NCBI GenBank assembly: GCA_963828465.1
Contig: CAWHEU010000021.1
Coordinates: forward strand, 1 to 64,000
Direction: 5' to 3'
Length of the DNA: 64,000 bases
DNA from: an uncultured Acidobacteriota bacterium
GTDB lineage: Bacteria > Actinomycetota > Acidimicrobiia > Spongiisociales > ZC4RG35
Position numbers and translations under genes: made by a program. Shown piece after piece: positions 38,536 through 49,218 of the stretch. The notes under the pieces are model-generated. The model was not told the DNA's origin. It did not search any database and saw only the letters and a program-made list of their open reading frames with translations. Every line of letters begins with the position of its first letter. Position 1 is the first letter of the stretch.

Positions 38536-41269
<2,734 letters not shown>

Positions 41270-41315: not shown

Positions 41316-41795
41316 GTGTTTGTCGGCGTCGTTGTCATCGGACTCGCGGTGGCCTGGGCCATCGGCGACCGCGGCGTGGTCGCCCAGGCCGGCGAACCGG
41401 CACCCGACTTCACCGTCGACGTCCTCGACGGGGGCACCTTCTCCCTCTCCGATCACATCGCTGACGACGGCAGACCCCTGATCATCAACCTCTGGGCCTC
41501 CTGGTGTGCCCCCTGCCGGAAGGAGATGCCGGATCTCTCTGCCTTTGCCGGGGAGCACCCCGAAATCGAGGTGGTGGGCGTCGCCGTCGAGGATTCGTTG
41601 GAGGAGGCGAGGACCTTCGCAGCCGAGATCGATCCGGAGTACGCCCTGGCCTACGGCGACGAGGCCTTCGAAGAGGCGTACCACAATTTCGGCCTGCCGG
41701 TCACCTACTTCCTCGACGCCGATGGCACGGTCACCGAGGTCTTCAACGGCATCCTGACGCCGGAGAGGCTCGAGGAGATCACTGCCGGCGTTTAG
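41316..41795 (+). CDS. TlpA/ResA membrane-anchored thiol-disulfide oxidoreductase (start may lie further upstream)
   Basis: APDF, INLWASWCAPCRKEMP, GLPVTYF. Confidence 0.9.
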   Translation: MFVGVVVIGLAVAWAIGDRGVVAQAGEPAPDFTVDVLDGGTFSLSDHIADDGRPLIINLWASWCAPCRKEMPDLSAFAGEHPEIEVVGVAVEDSLEEARTFAAEIDPEYALAYGDEAFEEAYHNFGLPVTYFLDADGTVTEVFNGILTPERLEEITAGV

Positions 41796-42463
41796 GCCGG
41801 CGCCGGGGCCGTTGCGAGCTGCTGCGCGTACTCGGCGTTGGGGCCCGCCACCAGCTCGGCAGTGACGATCAGGCGCTCCGTTGCCGAATACTTGGGATTG
41901 CAGGTGGTGAAAGTGAGCCAGGCCCCCGGCCTGCTATCGGTTACCCAGACGTCGGTTGGGGCGACAATGAACGACTCCCGGACCTCGTAGACGTGGGTCC
42001 CGATGCCGGTGTCGACCTCGACGCGGTCGCCGGGCACCAACAGGTCGAAGTCATGGAAGGGTCGGCCGTAGGTGGTCCGATGCCCTGAAATGACCGCGTT
42101 TCCGGGTTGTCCGGGAAGGGCCGTTCCCGGCATGTGGCCCGGGCCCTTGGCAAGGGTCGGTTTGGTCACGCCCTCGAAGACGACAGCCTCCAACCCGACC
42201 TTGGGGACCCGCAGCAGCGCGAACCCGACGCCGTCGCCAGGCACATCCTCCAGGACGTGCTCGACGACGACACCTTCCTCCTCGATTTCCTCGACTGCGG
42301 GGGTACCGACGTTCGCCATACGTCGCTCGAAAGTCGTCATCGCCTCCGTCTGGACCCGGGCGTTGAGGAGGTCCGTCCCATACAACTGCCAACCGAGGTA
42401 ACCGAAGAGGAAGATGCCGCTCCAGATGAGCGTCCACCCCAAGATCTGGACGTTCCGCCTCAT
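41792..42463 (-). CDS. Class E sortase
   Basis: N-terminal TM, GPGHMPGT..PG..GN..ISGHRTTYG, LTFTTCNP...R. Confidence 0.9.
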   Translation of the reverse strand: MRRNVQILGWTLIWSGIFLFGYLGWQLYGTDLLNARVQTEAMTTFERRMANVGTPAVEEIEEEGVVVEHVLEDVPGDGVGFALLRVPKVGLEAVVFEGVTKPTLAKGPGHMPGTALPGQPGNAVISGHRTTYGRPFHDFDLLVPGDRVEVDTGIGTHVYEVRESFIVAPTDVWVTDSRPGAWLTFTTCNPKYSATERLIVTAELVAGPNAEYAQQLATAPAPA

Positions 42464-43308
42464 TTCTCCCCCCGCAGGGGGGAGTCCGGCGAAGCCGGGA
42501 GGGGGGATTCTTGCTCCCCCCGCAGGGGGGAGTCCGGCACAGGATTCCCTTTCCAATGAGGATCGCGTTTCTCCTGGAACGCGGCGATCCCCTCGGCGGC
42601 ATCCTCGCTCATGGCAACTGCGGTGAGCCCCGTCTGCAGTCGGTCGAGCGCCGCGTCGAAGTCGAGGTCGGCCATGCCGTAATAGGCATCCCGACCGATC
42701 ATGAGAATGGCCGCGCTCTTCGACTGCAACGCGGCGACGACCTCGTCCACGACAAGATCCAGGTCGGCGCGGGGCACGACGCGGGACACCGCGCCAAGCC
42801 GCTGTGACTCGTGGGCGTCGATCACCCGACCGGTGAGCATCAGCTCGAGAGCAGACTTGCGGGGCATCACCCGGGCGAGGAGCGCCGAGATCATCATCGG
42901 CCACAGCCCTACCCCGATCTCGGGTGCGCCCAATTTGGCATCGTCAACGCAGATCGTCACGTCGCAGGCGACGGCGAGCCCGAATCCGCCGGCGAGTGCA
43001 TGGCCGTTGACCCTTGCCACAGTGGGCTTCCCGCCCCGGATGATGAGCCGGAACAGGTCGGCGAAGACTCCCCTGGCCTTGTGCAACCCGACAGGGTCGT
43101 CGACGAAAGAGCCCGACAGGTCGCCGCCGGCAGAGAATGCCTGGTCCCCGGCTCCGGTGTACACGAGGACGCGCACCGCAGGATCGTCGATTGCCCGTCT
43201 GGTCGTGGAGTGGAGTTCTTCCATCGTCTCCACCGAGAGCGGATTGCGGCGGGTGGGATCAGAGAGCGTGATAGTTGCTCGACCCTCACCCACTTCGTAC
43301 TCGACCAA
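42460..43308 (-). CDS. Enoyl-CoA hydratase/isomerase
   Basis: AFSAGGDL, NGHALAGGFGL, GAPE, EGIAAFQEKR; tail extended by the repeat. Confidence 0.9.
   Translation of the reverse strand: MVEYEVGEGRATITLSDPTRRNPLSVETMEELHSTTRRAIDDPAVRVLVYTGAGDQAFSAGGDLSGSFVDDPVGLHKARGVFADLFRLIIRGGKPTVARVNGHALAGGFGLAVACDVTICVDDAKLGAPEIGVGLWPMMISALLARVMPRKSALELMLTGRVIDAHESQRLGAVSRVVPRADLDLVVDEVVAALQSKSAAILMIGRDAYYGMADLDFDAALDRLQTGLTAVAMSEDAAEGIAAFQEKRDPHWKGNPVPDSPLRGEQESPLPASPDSPLRGEK
42466..42538. repeat. REP-like palindromic element, two identical 25-mers
   Basis: CTCCCCCCGCAGGGGGGAGTCCGGC at 42466-42490 and 42514-42538, with a CCGGC-GAA-GCCGG hairpin after copy 1. Confidence 0.85.
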
Positions 43309-43355
43309 TTCTCCGCCTTCGTCTGACTTGACACCCGGTATTACCGTCGTAGTAC

Positions 43356-43946
43356 ATGCTATGGCTGGCCATTGTCTTGTTCATCGCCTTGGCCATGGCG
43401 GTGCTGCGCGGGGGCCGTCTGACCAACCTGGGCGACATCGAGCTTCGGGCTTGGTGGCTCTTGCTGGTTGCCCTGGGCCTGCAGGTGGCGACCATCTGGC
43501 TGCCGGACTCGGATTGGGCAGAGGGTCTCGGGCTGGCCATGGTGCTGACCTCCTACGGGCTCCTCATGGCCCTGGTGGTGCTCAATCGCAACCGGACCGG
43601 GATGTGGCTCGCCGGTCTCGGGGTTCTGATGAACTTCACGGTGATCGCCGTCAACGGCGGGATGCCGGTGCTCGCCGAGGCGGCCGAGGTGGCTAGCGGG
43701 TTCACAGTCACCGTGCCTGATCTGTCCGGGTCGTTCAAGCACGTGATTCTCGACTCCGGTTCGAATCTCACCGCACTCGCCGATGTCATACCGCTCCGGA
43801 TAGGAGGGATCGGCCAGGTGATCAGCCTTGGTGATGTCTTCCTGGCGGTCGGCCTAGGCCGATTCCTGGAGCACGAGTTGCGCCGGCCACGTCGCTACTT
43901 CAAGCGCGGCGCCCACGCCCAGCCCGGGTCGGCGAGCAAGACCTGA
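43356..43946 (+). CDS. DUF5317 family membrane protein
   Basis: LRGGRL..L, LMNFTVIAVNGGMPV, LADVIP, VISLGDVFL. Confidence 0.8.
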   Translation: MLWLAIVLFIALAMAVLRGGRLTNLGDIELRAWWLLLVALGLQVATIWLPDSDWAEGLGLAMVLTSYGLLMALVVLNRNRTGMWLAGLGVLMNFTVIAVNGGMPVLAEAAEVASGFTVTVPDLSGSFKHVILDSGSNLTALADVIPLRIGGIGQVISLGDVFLAVGLGRFLEHELRRPRRYFKRGAHAQPGSASKT

Positions 43947-43958
43947 CCGATCAATTGG

Positions 43959-45203
43959 TCAGGTGCGGACGGGGGTCAGCACCCCCCGGCTCTCCAGCAG
44001 CCGGCGAAGGGATGCCACGACCTCCGGGTCGTAGTCGTAGGCGGCGCCGGTGTGGAGGACCTCTAGGGCCTGCAGGGGGGAGAGCCCCTCGAGATGCACC
44101 TGCCAGTCATAAGCGGCGGCGACCTTGATTATCCGCGACACGATCGAGACATCCGGGTCGGTTTGCTCGCCCGGCTTGCGATAGGGCTCGTACTGATGGC
44201 GCACGTGGGTCGCCACTCGGCTCAAGTACGGCGACTCGGCGATGATCTCCGAGCTCCAGCGTGCGAGGTCGGTATCGCTGTAACCCATTCGCAGTATCTG
44301 CGGCTCGTTGAGGCTGACGCGCCCGATGTCGTGCATCAGCCCGGCGTACTCCACGTCTTCCACCTGGACCGGGCCTAGCCCGATCTCCTTGGCGATGGCC
44401 GAGGCGAGCTCGGTGGTGCGGTCAGCGTGACCATCGACCCCGAGCCCGGAGACCTCGGGGATGCGAGCCAGCGCACGGATGGTCTGCTTGTAGGTCACCT
44501 TGGTCTGTTGGAACCGTTTGAAGGCGAGGTGGGCAAACGAGTAGGGAAGCAGGGCGATGGGGAGTGCCCACCAACCAATCGCCGGTAGTAGTTCGCCGAA
44601 CAGTGCACCCGTGAGAGCCAGTCCGAGGAAGACATTGAGATCGTGTATCAGGGAGCGGGCCAGATAGCTGCGGGACAGCTCACGCTTGCCCACGACGAGC
44701 ATGGAGCGGGCGAACACCTCGACCGCGATCCAGGCGAGGAGGGCCACGACGAACGGGACCAGGTCCGCCCAGCCTCCGTTCAACTCGGCAAACGGCCCCA
44801 CACGGAGGGCGGAGTACACGGTCGCATAGACGACATAACCGGCGAATCTCCGCACCAGAGTGGGCAGAAGGTCGGTGTGCTTCTCCCCACGTGAGTAACG
44901 GAGTGCCCAGACGATGGCAAGGCCCAGTCCATAAACGGCAATGCACCCGGCCAGGTCCACATCCTGTGTCGAGCCGAGCACGAAGGGCACGGCGGCAGCC
45001 ACCGCCAGACCCACCGTGAACCTGTTCCCCGTGTTGGAGGCCGCTACCCCGACCATCGAGGCCAGCACCAACGCCGTCACCGCAACCAGCAATTTGATCG
45101 GATCGGTCACAGCAATGGTGGCCGCATAGAGACCAACCCCGGCGATAACGAGGACATACAGCCAGGAGACGATGGAGAGGGCGCGTGGGCTCCAGCTAGC
45201 CAC
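43959..45203 (-). CDS. Multi-TM protein with degenerate HD-GYP-like domain
   Basis: About 7 TMs; GH..R and MHDIG retained, HHE..DG.GYP replaced by RHQYEPY; YDPEVV. Confidence 0.82.
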   Translation of the reverse strand: MASWSPRALSIVSWLYVLVIAGVGLYAATIAVTDPIKLLVAVTALVLASMVGVAASNTGNRFTVGLAVAAAVPFVLGSTQDVDLAGCIAVYGLGLAIVWALRYSRGEKHTDLLPTLVRRFAGYVVYATVYSALRVGPFAELNGGWADLVPFVVALLAWIAVEVFARSMLVVGKRELSRSYLARSLIHDLNVFLGLALTGALFGELLPAIGWWALPIALLPYSFAHLAFKRFQQTKVTYKQTIRALARIPEVSGLGVDGHADRTTELASAIAKEIGLGPVQVEDVEYAGLMHDIGRVSLNEPQILRMGYSDTDLARWSSEIIAESPYLSRVATHVRHQYEPYRKPGEQTDPDVSIVSRIIKVAAAYDWQVHLEGLSPLQALEVLHTGAAYDYDPEVVASLRRLLESRGVLTPVRT

Positions 45204-46587
45204 GAAGGGTCAACTCCGGCTCTTCGGCGAGACGACGGGCCATCTCCTCGTCGTTCACATGCGGGGCGCCCCAGCGACGACCGGTCTTGTTGAGCGCTCG
45301 CTCGAAAGCGTCGACCACCTCCGGGTGGAACTGGGCGCCAGAGTTGCGCCTCAACTCGGATATGGCGTATTGCTGTGAGAGTGCCATCCGATAGGACCGG
45401 GCCGAGGTCATCGCGTCGAATGCGTCGGCCGCGGCGACGATGCAAGCCTCGATCCGGGGAGGCTCACCCTGGCTGTGCCCGCTGCCGCCGTATCCACTCC
45501 CGTCGAAATTGCTGTGGTGGCCGGAGGCGATCTCGACCATGGGCTGGAGGAAGTCCACTTCGGCGAGGATCTCTTCGACGAGTTGAGCGTGGGCCTTCAT
45601 CTCGGCGTACTCGTCCTCGTCGAGCCGGCCCCTTTTCCGGATGAGCTCGGTGGGGACGGCCAGTTTGCCCAGATCGTGGATCAGGGCCGACCAGCGGAGA
45701 GTCTCGAGCTGGGTCCCACTGAAGCCCATCTCCTCGCCGATCATCTGTGAGAAGAACGCCACCCTTTCCGTGTGCCCTCTGGTGTACATGTCCTTGGCCT
45801 CGAGCGTCTTGACGAATCCGCGAATCGACCCGATGTGCGAATCACGCAATTGCGAGTAGGCGTAGAGGGACATGTGGCCAATGGCGTAGACGCCTACGAT
45901 GAAAACGATGATCGCTTCGCCGTCGGCGATGAGAAAAGCTGCGCCGATGAGCCCGCCGATGAGGCCCATGGCTACCTGACCGACAAACAGAGTCGGCATC
46001 TGGGACCAGGGCTCGAGATTGTCCCGGCCGAAAACGACCTTCACCGCATATCGAACCAGAACCGTCTGCACCGTGGCGTAGGCCAGGGCCGCGACCGCCG
46101 ACACGACCAGCACCCTGATCAGAGACCCGGCAGTGTCCGGGACGCCTTCGAGATATGTGTCGAGGATGAGGCCGCACACGGCGCCGGCAGTGACGATCTG
46201 CCCGAAGTTGGCCATCGGCTGGAACCAGCGCTTCTCTTTGAAGTCGAGCGGGGTGAACAGGGCGAGAGCACCCATCAGCGCCAGACCGAACATCGCGTCG
46301 GAATCGGGACGCATGGCCAGGATCACCCCGGCGCTCATCGCCACCATCACAGAGGCGGACTGCAGCATGCGATCGTTGACCTCGACCGCGAAGAACTCGA
46401 GCAGGACGAAGAGGACGGCGAATGGGGCCCAATACGCCCAGACCGGCATCTCGGAGTAGAAGAACGACCCGACGAGGGCGGCCAGACCCGCCAGCGAGTA
46501 GGGCACAGCGATCTTCAACCGGCGCTGCACCGTGGGTCGGAGACGACCGAACCATCCCCGCAACGGTTTTTTCCTACCAAGCCTCAT
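45196..46587 (-). CDS. Multi-TM HD-GYP cyclic-dinucleotide phosphodiesterase
   Basis: About 7-8 TMs; EAKDMYTRGHTERV, IHDLGK, HHSNFDGSGYG, ADAFDAMTSARSYR, GAQFHP. Confidence 0.9.
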   Translation of the reverse strand: MRLGRKKPLRGWFGRLRPTVQRRLKIAVPYSLAGLAALVGSFFYSEMPVWAYWAPFAVLFVLLEFFAVEVNDRMLQSASVMVAMSAGVILAMRPDSDAMFGLALMGALALFTPLDFKEKRWFQPMANFGQIVTAGAVCGLILDTYLEGVPDTAGSLIRVLVVSAVAALAYATVQTVLVRYAVKVVFGRDNLEPWSQMPTLFVGQVAMGLIGGLIGAAFLIADGEAIIVFIVGVYAIGHMSLYAYSQLRDSHIGSIRGFVKTLEAKDMYTRGHTERVAFFSQMIGEEMGFSGTQLETLRWSALIHDLGKLAVPTELIRKRGRLDEDEYAEMKAHAQLVEEILAEVDFLQPMVEIASGHHSNFDGSGYGGSGHSQGEPPRIEACIVAAADAFDAMTSARSYRMALSQQYAISELRRNSGAQFHPEVVDAFERALNKTGRRWGAPHVNDEEMARRLAEEPELTLRG

Positions 46588-46636
46588 TGAGCCCCTCGAC
46601 GACATGTGTGACCGTTTGGTGAGCCGGCGTCGGTTA

Positions 46637-46714
46637 TCAGCCGATCCGGGTGCCGGCGAGCACTAACTCCAGGCTCGCGACACATCTGTGATTACGGGCC
46701 AGAAATGCCTTCAT
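46637..46714 (-). CDS. Putative 25-aa peptide MKAFLARNHRCVASLELVLAGTRIG (absent from the ORF track)
   Basis: AGGTGA SD 9 nt before ATG; tandem TGA-TAA stops; lies between the promoter and the HD-GYP gene. Confidence 0.5.
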   Translation of the reverse strand: MKAFLARNHRCVASLELVLAGTRIG

Positions 46715-46839
46715 CAAGAACGCTCACCTGTTGGTGCCGTATTTCACCGGCGTTGTGTGCCGGTGTTGACGATCCGCTCCGCTGGGGTTGATGGGCGTCC
46801 AGTACAAGGCCGACGTCTGACGCCGGACTCACCGCTTTT

Positions 46840-46880
46840 CCCCGGCAAGTCTTGACGGGGAACCTTTAACATGTCAAAGG
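46840..46880 (-). promoter_or_regulatory. Sigma-70-type promoter for the peptide/HD-GYP transcript, overlapped by two palindromes
   Basis: Minus-strand TTGACA(46877-46872)-N18-AAGACT; palindromes CCCCGGCAAGTCTTGACGGGG and CCTTTAACATGTCAAAGG. Confidence 0.5.
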
Positions 46881-47055
46881 CCCCTGACTTCGCCCGCCAT
46901 TGGCCAGGCAGACGGGTCAGAGACCTCGGCTGCCCCACGTTTCCAATAATGCCTTCCAGCCCGCCGCAATCTAGAGCCTCTCGGTACCTTGAACAAGGGG
47001 AAATGCGGCGTGTTATCCCGATAGACCACTCCGGTTGGCTGTACGCTGGGAGGTC

Positions 47056-47676
47056 ATGGACCTAATCGCGCTCCAGGACAAGATCTGTCGCATCGACGGC
47101 GTCGAGGCGGCGAGGATCGTCGCCGGCAACGGCCATATCGAGGAAATACATGTCCTGGCCCGCCGAAACAAGCCGCCCAAGCAGGTCGTGAGAGACGTGC
47201 AGTCCCTGAGCCAGGCGCTGTTTGGCGAGGAGATCGACCGCCGGGTGGTCTCGGTCGTGCAGCTCGCCGACTCCGATCTCGATATGGGATTTCGTCCGGC
47301 GCTGGTCGACGTCAGTGAGACCCTCGACGGGTCCCGCGCAGTTGTTTCGGTGACATTGCGGTGGCAGAACGAGGTCTTCACCGGCTCGTCGAAGGGCGCC
47401 GCCGCGGTGACCACCCGATCTCGTCAGATCGCCGAGGCCACGCTCGAGGCCATCCGCCAGGCCATCCATCAGGAGGCGGCCCTCGCCGTCTCGTCGATGG
47501 ATATACCCGTGTTGGGGAGCCGCAAGGTGGCGGTGGCACAAATAGTCGTGGTCACCGAGGCGACCGAGCGACACCTCATCGGGTGCGCCTATGTCGAGGA
47601 CGAAGAATCGAGAGCGGTGGTCCGCTCAGTCCTCGATGCCCTCAATCGGGTGCTTCCCGACCTCAAGATATCCTGA
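47056..47676 (+). CDS. Conserved hypothetical protein (EEIHVL..PKQVVRDVQS motif; C-terminus resembles the LeuA regulatory fold)
   Basis: GGGAGG RBS; IEEIHVLA, PKQVVRDVQS, IDRRVVSVVQ, IAEATLEAI, AVVRSVLDALNR. Confidence 0.75.
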   Translation: MDLIALQDKICRIDGVEAARIVAGNGHIEEIHVLARRNKPPKQVVRDVQSLSQALFGEEIDRRVVSVVQLADSDLDMGFRPALVDVSETLDGSRAVVSVTLRWQNEVFTGSSKGAAAVTTRSRQIAEATLEAIRQAIHQEAALAVSSMDIPVLGSRKVAVAQIVVVTEATERHLIGCAYVEDEESRAVVRSVLDALNRVLPDLKIS

Positions 47677-49218
47677 CGCACGCGGTCTCCACCCCACATC
47701 ATTACTCCACGGATGCGGCCAAACGTGTGCTGATCGCTGGGGGCAATGCGGTGGACGCGGCGATCGCAGCCACCGCTACCCAGGGGGTCGTCGCACCGGA
47801 GACCTGCGGGGTCGGGGGTGATCTCTTCGCCATGGTTCACAGGCCGGGATGGGATGAGCCCCGTGCGCTCAATGCCTCCGGACGCGCCGGGTCCCATGCC
47901 GACCCCGGCCCCGTTCGGGACGTCAGGGTCATCCCGCGCGACCACCCGCTCTCCGTCACAGTGCCCGGTTGTGTCGACGGTTGGTCGGTCCTTTCTTCTG
48001 AGCTCGGCCGTCTCGCACTGAGTGAATGCGTCGCCCCGGCCATCGAGCTACGCCAGCGAGGGCTTCGAGGTCTCCACCGAGCAGGCTGGCGCCTTTCTCG
48101 ATCAGGCATCCTTCTACGCCGGGCAACGGGCGGTCCGAGAGTTCTATCCGGGTGGGGCAGCGGTCGTGCGAGGTGATGTCGTCAAGCGACCTGATCTCGC
48201 GGCCACTCTCCACGCTGTCGGCGAGCGAGGGCGAGATGCCTTCTATCTCGGGGATCCGGCCCAGGACATCGTCGAGGAATTGGGTGGCCTCATAACACAC
48301 GGCGACCTGGCCCGATCCCACGCCGACTGGGTGAGCCCGATCTCATGTGCGGTCGGGGACATGTTTGCCTGGACCCTCCCCCCCAACTCACAGGGCTATC
48401 TCGGCCCTGCCACGCTCGCGGTGTTCGAGATGCTGGGACCACCTTCGGACCCGGCCGACCCGGACTGGTGGCATCTGCTGATCGAGGCGTTTCGCTCGAT
48501 GGCCTGGGAGAGAGACGATCTCGTCGCCGATCCCGACCACGCACCCCTTCCCGGGCACCTCCTCCTCGATCCTGCCCGTTTGGGCCGAGCCGCCGACACG
48601 GTCGACCGAGCCGCAACGGGAGTCTGGCCCAGGAGAATGGGGTCCGAGTCGAGCACGGCGTACATGTGCATCGTCGACGACGAGGGCTTGGCCGTGTCCA
48701 TCATCCAGTCGAACTTCGAAGGGACAGGCTCCGCATTCGGCGCCGGCACGAGTGGGTTCTTGCTCCACAACCGGGGCAGCGGCTTCTCCCTGACTCCGGG
48801 ACATCCGAACGAGCTGCAGCCCGGGAAGCGCCCGCTGCACACCCTCTCTCCCACCCTCTGGACCCGCGATCGGGAGCCGACATGGGTGATCGGGACCCGA
48901 GGCGGCTCGGTGCAGCCTCAACTCGTGGCTCAGGTTGCGGCACGAGCCATCCTCGCCGGGAAGACCATCGAGGAGGCTCAGACCGCGCCGAGATGGGTGG
49001 TCCGGGAGTTCGGACCGTTCTCCGAGGCGCGTCTCCTGGTGGAGCCCGGTATCGCCGGGGCCACGCTCTCCAACCTGCGGTCGCGCGGGCACGTCATCGA
49101 AGAAGTGCCCGACCGCCAACCCGGTTGGGGGCCGGTGTCCATGATCAAAATCGACGGCAAGGACCGCACGACCCACCCGGACCCCCGCGTCGACACCACC
49201 AGCGCGATCGTTTTCTGA
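47673..49218 (+). CDS. ggt: Gamma-glutamyltransferase family protein; frameshift near 48050, start uncertain
   Basis: GGNAVDAAIA, GVGGDLF, SVTVPG, LPPNSQG, S-T nucleophile (STAYMC), LHNRG, KRPLHTL. Confidence 0.85.

Follow-up and report, generated by a model that had tools for sequence, protein, structure and literature searches.

We analyzed a stretch of 64,000 nt (the window; contig CAWHEU010000021.1, positions 1 to 64,000 of the forward strand) from a metagenome-assembled genome of Acidimicrobiia with 64% G+C, in which a small open reading frame (sORF) of 25 codons precedes two genes for membrane-bound HD-GYP proteins, here called HDA (the first) and HDB (the second). A gene for a DUF5317 membrane protein converges on this unit and a gene for a protein with the motif PKQVVRD, labeled PKQ, diverges from it. 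This gene set, put forward in the original prediction for the locus, was borne out by open reading frame (ORF) calls and Pfam, including the overlap of the two multi-transmembrane HD-GYP genes. We suggest that these genes, together with a leader RNA that carries AGCGG repeats, may constitute a signaling module that recurs in other classes and in metagenomes. The features of the locus, in window positions, are as follows.

43356..43946, plus strand: DUF5317 membrane protein of 196 aa (Pfam PF17248, 1e-29), a candidate LspA-like intramembrane aspartyl peptidase.
43959..45203, minus strand: HDB, the second multi-transmembrane HD-GYP protein, a degenerate paralog of 414 aa (translation, Pfam and hydropathy).
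45196..46605, minus strand: HDA, the first multi-transmembrane HD-GYP protein, a predicted phosphodiesterase of 469 aa (translation, Pfam and hydropathy).
46623..46657, minus strand: hairpin with GCCGGC arms over the last sORF codons and the stop (sequence and fold), inside or just after which RNA-library contigs end.
46637..46714, minus strand: sORF of 25 codons plus stop with an ATG start, encoding MKAFLARNHRCVASLELVLAGTRIG (translation and family hidden Markov model, HMM).
46715..46961, minus strand: long, structured leader at the 5′ end of the transcript for the sORF and HD-GYP genes, with an estimated start; RNA-library contigs reach 46948 and 46952.
46724..46729, minus strand: Shine-Dalgarno-like AGGTGA, 9 nt before the sORF ATG; the AGGTGA column is conserved in alignments.
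46745..46765, minus strand: leader hairpin CACCGGC/GCCGGTG directly after the AGCGG repeat, conserved in position, with stem sequences that differ by lineage.
46774..46783, minus strand: AGCGGAGCGG, two tandem AGCGG units; AGCGRAGCG is invariant across lineages.
46968..46996, minus strand: candidate promoter read by eye, with a -35 box TTGTTC (46996-46991), 17 nt, and a -10 box TAGATT (46973-46968).
47035/47056..47676, plus strand: divergent PKQ gene for a predicted cytoplasmic protein of 206 aa from the ATG at 47056, or 213 aa from 47035.

The start of HDB and the stop of HDA overlap by 8 nt, and a TTG one codon upstream offers an alternative sORF start that would give 26 codons. Kyte-Doolittle hydropathy returned 7 hydrophobic segments for HDA, 8 for HDB (partly overlapping), 5 for DUF5317 and none for PKQ. 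HDA matches the Pfam family HD_5 (PF13487) at 1.9e-27 with 96.5 bits and HDB at 4.1e-10 with 40.1 bits, both above the cut-off of 27.2. The metal-ligand pattern H...HD...H...HH...D is intact in the translation of HDA and in the consensus of 124 HDA-type sequences; two of the His positions are missing from HDB and from the consensus of 62 HDB-type sequences, so that the second protein is degenerate, as had been proposed. The GYP motif itself is absent from HDA, which reads GYG at this place, and the consensus of the 124 HDA-type sequences reaches only DGxGY. HD-GYP domains hydrolyze cyclic di-GMP (c-di-GMP) or cyclic GMP-AMP (cGAMP), and HDA presumably acts on one of these cyclic dinucleotides, perhaps as a heterodimer with HDB. 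HDA thus resembles known HD-GYP phosphodiesterases such as RpfG, PmGH, Bd1817 and the V-cGAPs in its strong HD_5 match and its H/HD/H/HH/D ligands, and differs from them in that the Pro of GYP is not conserved in the HDA type, that it is paired with a degenerate paralog, and that the input region of both proteins is an N-terminal domain of 7-8 helices without a Pfam family rather than a REC or GAF domain. Searches of Pfam with the HDA and HDB transmembrane domains gave nothing useful at E up to 10, and the PADLOC defense profiles yielded only weak generic HD matches to Cas3 models, with none for DUF5317 or PKQ.

If the components act together, DUF5317, HD-GYP and PKQ genes should be linked in other genomes, as the original prediction had it, and we found that they are. 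Within Acidimicrobiia the arrangement DUF5317(+)/HDB(-)/HDA(-)/PKQ(+) is kept: DUF5317 lies beside both HD-GYP genes in 19 of 20 loci of relatives, and all six genes (the module plus flanking enoyl-CoA hydratase and gamma-glutamyltransferase genes) are present in 14 of the 20. The exception, locus L035 (G030:C14), is without the HD-GYP pair and PKQ, and its DUF5317 gene, still flanked by the hydratase and transferase genes, is broken by frameshifts into three pieces; the module there looks as if it were decaying as a whole. Taken by itself, linkage within the order is weak evidence because the whole block is syntenic, including its hydratase and transferase flanks. When 185,579 species genomes were scanned with a PKQ alignment, 80 loci came back, each of them Acidimicrobiia-like; an HD-GYP gene lies upstream of PKQ in all 69 loci that extend there, and DUF5317 is present in 46 of the 55 that extend far enough. 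DUF5317 was found in 121 of 301 sampled Actinomycetota genomes (a tally that includes 9 unpublished genomes), and Thermus thermophilus and Thermotoga maritima have it as well.

Linkage outside the class is more telling. Among 19 DUF5317 copies from other classes, HD-GYP is adjacent in 7 and PKQ as well in 5. Loci L151, L153, L154 and L156 from other Actinomycetota classes (GC 0.34-0.50) have one co-directional operon with the order PKQ > HD-GYP (one or two) > DUF5317, and L157, also from another class, is arranged as in the window. We also scanned metagenomes, taking as seed a PKQ of the Bacillota type from a family whose cluster members are named Desulfitobacteriaceae and Firmicutes, and obtained a further 80 loci at GC 0.32-0.68. 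HD-GYP was present in 47/47 of these with at least 1.8 kb downstream of PKQ; where at least 4.2 kb follows PKQ, HD-GYP was present in 33/33 and DUF5317 in 31/33, all on the same strand and in the co-directional order PKQ > sORF > HD-GYP (one or two) > DUF5317. Outside the class, then, the flanks are different and the genes stand in other orders and on other strands, but the four families and the sORF are still neighbors. Because this adjacency persists while order and strands change, we consider it very probable that the module is one functional unit. Literature listings contained nothing on DUF5317, on HD-GYP with a lipoprotein signal peptidase, or on the module, and motif strings returned unrelated papers; the module is widespread and uncharacterized.

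The sORF was also expected to be conserved upstream of HD-GYP orthologs, and this expectation held. In Acidimicrobiia outside the window's genus the sORF has 29 codons, for example MKAKVARFIAIASSLSALIVAGAASFKVG at L024 and MRTKMIRLMAVAASLAATLVAGGASFKVG at L030, and an HMM built from the 29-codon sORFs matched in 69 of 91 upstream regions, with 70 hits in the sense and 0 in the antisense direction, every match ending at the stop or no more than 4 residues from it. Five further divergent copies were recognized by eye. Other classes and metagenome loci carry a version of 24-26 aa between PKQ and the first HD-GYP gene, such as MKRLMLVLASLAAVVLAGGASFRM at L222, found on the sense strand in 48/51 metagenome loci and on the antisense strand in 0/51. 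For codon analysis we used the 51 loci with exactly 29 codons from an NTG start, which represent 48 distinct sequences. Entropy by codon position was 1.10, 0.72 and 1.56, the third position being the most variable, and single-base codon differences were synonymous in 68% of cases in the sORF frame, compared with 23% and 11% in the shifted frames. All three stops occur at one aligned position (TGA 25, TAA 12, TAG 11). We conclude that the sORF is a real coding gene, because third positions vary most, three different stops occupy one position, and matches lie on the sense strand only.

The encoded peptide follows a constant design of a basic N-terminus, about 17 hydrophobic residues, the sequence L/V-A-G-(G/S/A/T)-A and an aromatic/basic tail of 3-6 residues (FKIG and xFRW are examples), so that L-x-A-G-x-A forms the core of a family of micropeptides of 24-29 aa. 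Ala24 is kept in 48/48 and Gly22 in 47/48 of the sequences, and the amino-acid pattern persists over GC 0.32-0.73 despite heavy synonymous turnover and changing Ala-Gly codons. We consider it highly likely that the peptide is translated and seated in the membrane. Its appearance is that of a short membrane helix and agrees with a partner inside the membrane no less well than with a diffusible signal. Three sORF peptides gave nothing useful in Pfam at E up to 10; the ESM Atlas contains unnamed clusters of 29-32 aa at 0.90-0.91, which serve as a lead only. At L155 (6192-6480) the sORF occurs twice in tandem with identical 25-aa products and a run of N between them.

Upstream of the sORF, the leader is conserved in its own right. 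The sequence AGCGRAGCG, found some 60-75 nt upstream of the sORF start, is invariant in 56/56 aligned Acidimicrobiia-type leaders, including those of L151 (GC 0.34) and L157, and it is present in 57/63 metagenome leaders. A second AGCG unit follows within 8-45 nt in 55/58 metagenome leaders and is placed in a hairpin loop in 38/55 minimum free energy (MFE) folds. The hairpin segments after the motif have a mean z of -1.96 (78 unique segments), the 361 nt at 46600-46960 fold with an MFE z of -3.9, and a clade without the sORF still has the leader motif. RNAalifold on 35 mixed leaders returned 0 pairs, two architectures being misaligned by 2 columns, and hence single-sequence folds were used. 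Rfam 15 gave no match at E up to 1 for the window leader or the leaders of 7 metagenome loci.

Contigs from soil metatranscriptomes covered this region in 4/4 runs, spanning 46599/46645 to 46878/46952 at a depth of 112-374, and in the same runs contigs over HDA and PKQ had a depth of 3-27, about ten-fold below leader and sORF. Contig depth and contig ends are hints, not expression measurements. Ends near the sORF stop fell at 46645, 46646 and 46599, and one contig runs on into HDA. Adapter sequence was found at 46948, 46952, 46645, 46599 and 46298, in one orientation throughout, which suggests discrete ends and a minus-strand RNA. The stretch 46998-47058 is without RNA-contig cover, which is not evidence of a gap. 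Window base 46836 is missing from all four RNA-library contigs, which reflects either strain variation or an assembly error of one base in the leader. In two runs, contigs of high depth (332 and 379) match only the 40 nt at 46858-46897 and diverge on both sides; this stretch may be a conserved leader element common to other organisms in the samples.

The promoter proposed upstream of the sORF is the weakest item of the locus. The boxes read by eye lie 16-25 nt upstream of the RNA-contig ends at 46948 and 46952, and TAGATT is conserved within the genus; a sigma-70 scan returned 0 sites in 43000-48000.

The DUF5317 protein matches PF17248 with 103.9 bits (cut-off 25), as do 33/33 aligned members, and 33 diverse members share invariant N77, G89, N93, N100, M103, P104, L141, D143, S157, G159, D160 and G166, with the motifs N100-GG-MP and S157-x-G159-D160. 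The original prediction had cast DUF5317 as a membrane peptidase by analogy, and this part received unexpected support from a likeness to LspA, the lipoprotein signal peptidase II. VIA-align of the AlphaFold2 model (predicted local distance difference test, pLDDT, 86.7) placed LspA chain 5dir_A at rank 3 of 48,161 (Z 5.6, root-mean-square deviation (rmsd) 2.9, 92 residues, 21% identity) and 6ryp_A at rank 8 (Z 5.3, rmsd 4.1, 94 residues, 17% identity), in a list topped by 5.8 and so entirely below the tool's caution line of 8. The PDB holds three LspA sequences in all, and two of the three are among the top 8 chains. Profile comparison by hhalign with 23 actinobacterial LspA sequences gave E 1.7e-3, and with 64 DUF5317 sequences E 4.8e-4 and a score of 30.7; unrelated transmembrane profiles scored 13.5-17.3, reversed LspA 20.8, and 30 column shuffles at most 16.4. 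This alignment pairs DVIP...SxGD with DFxDF...FNxAD of LspA, which sets D143 and D160 on both invariant Asp of LspA at a probability of 15-32%, and in a relaxed form it is co-linear over the whole length. The two conserved Asp of LspA are catalytic.

We therefore regard DUF5317 as probably related to LspA and as an inferred peptidase. Several points weigh against the relationship besides the low Z and probability values: Peptidase_A8 (PF01252) matched 0/33 DUF5317 proteins at E up to 10, Foldseek against the PDB with the model returned nothing at E 0.001 or better, a PDB sequence-profile search gave 0 matches at E up to 10, and NCBIfam had nothing for DUF5317 or PKQ. DUF5317 also departs from LspA in its number of helices, five against four, and in an additional insert. 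The peptide in turn resembles lipobox substrates in that it has a basic N-terminus and a hydrophobic core and carries L-A-G where the lipobox would be, and differs from them in having G/S/A/T in place of Cys and just 4-8 residues thereafter. LspA substrates need Cys at +1, which the peptide lacks, and the window's genome has an ordinary LspA elsewhere. Contact between peptide and enzyme is presumed in the proposal, and cleavage of the peptide by DUF5317 is doubtful on present evidence. Complex prediction with the L030 peptide (in its 32-aa TTG reading) and L030 DUF5317, both entered as alignments, scored 0.01 against a mark of 0.32, which is evidence neither way.

PKQ in the window belongs to no Pfam family, and a significant Pfam domain was found in 0/58 family members, in a family of 1,562 clusters (50% identity) at E 1e-3 or better. 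Its AlphaFold2 model (pLDDT 94.6) has two domains. The C-terminal one resembles the Ile/Leu-binding regulatory domain of citramalate/isopropylmalate synthase (LiCMS/LeuA; 3f6g_B, Z 9.2, rmsd 3.1, 109 residues) and the N-terminal one the cytoplasmic C-terminal domains of CDF metal transporters (6vd9_A, Z 8.7), so that both are predicted to be small ligand-sensing folds. The layout recalls attenuation by HutP or TRAP, in that the operon form has the regulator-like PKQ gene first, then a repeat RNA and then the genes that would be regulated, and in that the leader has short repeats at 5-nt spacing and displays a repeat in a hairpin loop. PKQ differs from those proteins in that no sequence or fold relation to them was found and its domains resemble LeuA/LiCMS and CDF instead.

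Taking these lines together, we favor the reading that PKQ, the AGCGG leader RNA, the membrane micropeptide, a membrane HD-GYP protein (often with its degenerate paralog) and DUF5317 form a new, widespread signaling module that works in the way set out here, and to this explanation as a whole, mechanism included, we assign a probability of about 0.45. In the mechanism that we envisage, the operon would be transcribed with a long structured leader, which would gate expression and, along with the sORF, build up as a short RNA. Translation of the sORF would yield a single-helix peptide that begins with basic residues, runs through a hydrophobic stretch of about 17 residues and a lipobox-like L-A-G-(G/S)-A, and ends in a short aromatic/basic tail. 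This peptide would meet DUF5317, as a distant relative of signal peptidase II, in the membrane, where it would be bound or cut at A-G|(G/S), and the peptide or a fragment of it would act on the 7-8-helix sensor domains of HDA and HDB and set the hydrolysis of c-di-GMP or cGAMP. Control would thus be local and within the membrane, in cis or autocrine, and not quorum sensing of the agr type.

A number of observations count against this reading. No cleavage, export or contact was shown by these computational analyses. Members of the window's genus carry a derived peptide that is shorter by 4 residues and has a polar central part; the sORF is frame-disrupted in L021 and L037 and was not found in L046 of the same genus. 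Because the genus form is shortened, polar and disrupted or not found in relatives, the window's own copy may be under relaxed constraint. The A-G-x-A sequence could be a mere small-residue packing motif of helices. The partners are also not strictly tied to one another: DUF5317 paralogs had no HD-GYP gene within 1.5 kb in 20 of the 30 best-scoring loci (two of them in the unpublished genomes G159 and G186), the sORF occurs without nearby DUF5317 in L092 and L209, and DUF5317 occurs without sORF and HDA in L097 and L101. DUF5317 is furthermore fused to MFS transporters in L160 (5986-8580, with HEAT repeats) and L169 (7920-9722) and adjoins MASE9-GAF-HisKA kinases in L161 and L162, and to judge from these gene contexts it appears to be a reusable membrane module outside the HD-GYP setting. 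Eight loci are without both sORF and DUF5317; they form one clade (100/100 support) and so record one event, and five searched genomes of that clade (L108, L112, L113, L117, L119) had no PF17248 match anywhere. We had considered this joint loss as evidence of coupling and dropped it, given that it is a single event with counter-examples in L092 and L209.

Several other explanations of the same observations were considered. The sORF could be a cis-acting leader peptide whose translation melts the stop-codon hairpin and so sets read-through into the HD-GYP genes, the abundant short RNA being the attenuated transcript and the peptide having no role in trans. The hairpin at 46623-46657, the contigs that end within or near it with one continuing into HDA, the roughly ten-fold drop in depth downstream and the long, structured, conserved leader are all as this explanation would have them. 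In known leader peptides, conservation is usually confined to a few codons. Here charge, hydrophobic core, A-G-x-A and tail are kept from GC 0.32 to 0.73 with synonymous turnover, and we consider a leader role alone unlikely, noting that a peptide role and a leader role in cis could coexist.

A stable small subunit would be another use for such a peptide, or DUF5317 may not be a peptidase and may instead serve as a channel, as a transporter or as a sensor that faces the lipids and, together with the micropeptide, passes a membrane or envelope signal to the HD-GYP sensor domains in the manner of MgrB and PhoQ. The A-G-G-A sequence read as a packing motif, the interface residues at both ends of the helix, the MFS fusions and kinase neighbors of DUF5317 and its weak LspA scores all agree with this view. 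It has difficulty with the two invariant Asp and the invariant Asn in or near predicted helices, co-linear with LspA motifs, which are hard to explain in a passive partner, and we rate it, too, as not likely. Small membrane proteins that tune sensors, such as MgrB with PhoQ, or SafA, are like the module's peptide in having fewer than 50 aa, in being probably membrane-embedded and in lying beside signaling genes. In Clostridioides difficile, small membrane-associated proteins of c-di-GMP-riboswitch genes are reported (PMC13724677), which share the size below 50 aa, the probable membrane location and a cyclic-dinucleotide signaling context. The module's peptide differs from these and from MgrB and SafA in that it belongs to another sequence family and has a constant place in one operon together with the HD-GYP, DUF5317 and PKQ genes.

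Quorum sensing like that of agr or Phr, with the sORF product as a propeptide from which DUF5317 frees a C-terminal peptide of 4-8 residues outside the cell and a polytopic HD-GYP protein that senses density, would take up the agr comparison of the original prediction. In agr (AgrD/AgrB/AgrC, with RNAIII and its 26-aa ORF) one likewise finds a small ORF, a processing membrane protein, to which DUF5317 may correspond, and a polytopic receptor, and the module's sORF also sits on a short, apparently abundant RNA. The signal-peptide-like layout (basic N-terminus, hydrophobic core, A-G-S-A-S or A-G-G-A, short conserved tail), the likeness of DUF5317 to a signal peptidase and the depth of the sORF-bearing RNA contigs far above the flanks agree with such a scheme, and the architecture stands to the extent that a peptide, a peptidase-like protein and a polytopic receptor-like protein are its parts. 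The parts themselves have no Pfam relation to AgrB, AgrD or AgrC, no conserved thiolactone Cys and no linked histidine kinase or regulator, and Pfam offers nothing for the peptide or the transmembrane domains. The conserved module has no exporter gene, and the tail has just 4-8 residues, is aromatic and basic as is typical of the membrane interface, and differs greatly between close lineages. The secretion and cell-density side of the analogy found no evidence of export, cleavage or quorum sensing, and we judge this scheme improbable. The output predicted from the HD_5 match is a phosphodiesterase rather than a kinase, as the original prediction also had it. Plain conserved synteny without functional coupling, which the shared hydratase and transferase flanks within the order would allow, is scarcely credible where flanks, order and strands all change outside the class and the four families and sORF stay together.

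A bolder form of the favored module would be a three-layer system without a described parallel, present in several bacterial phyla, in which PKQ would read the leader, DUF5317 would cut the peptide and HD-GYP would be the receptor. PKQ would be a ligand-sensing RNA-binding regulator that acts on the AGCGG repeats, by analogy with attenuation proteins, and sets operon expression; the sORF would encode a free-standing signal peptide cut by DUF5317 at a Cys-less lipobox; and the released fragment would be the ligand of a 7-8-helix receptor with cyclic-dinucleotide hydrolysis as its output. That all three layers hold jointly is a long shot.

Neighboring genes bear on the quality of the assembly. 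The gamma-glutamyltransferase gene is split into overlapping ORFs at 47361-48176 and 48022-49218 on the plus strand, which match Pfam positions 2-117 and 111-508, and the split at 47361-49218 is a frameshift or an indel of the assembly. An aconitase-like gene is split as well (38536-40443 and 40082-41269, plus strand, overlapping). Because both genes are split, indel errors in the assembly are hinted at. In locus L041, which is 99% identical, the HD-GYP matches are likewise in fragments. Translations alone identify a thioredoxin-like ORF with a WCAPC motif (41316-41795, plus strand) that converges on a sortase-like ORF with a TFTTC motif (41792-42904, minus strand).

To our knowledge, no class of cyclic-dinucleotide phosphodiesterase is less well understood than the HD-GYP proteins, and little has been established about what the membrane-bound ones take as input. 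The module would make one such input testable, would give DUF5317 and the PKQ family their first functional contexts, and adds a conserved, apparently unannotated micropeptide family and a leader RNA motif absent from Rfam. Should DUF5317 prove to be a relative of signal peptidase II with a Cys-less lipobox peptide as its substrate, this would extend the known range of such proteases, and the three-layer system, if true, would be a peptide-to-second-messenger pathway across several bacterial phyla. The gene set appears to be a new means by which bacteria control a second messenger.

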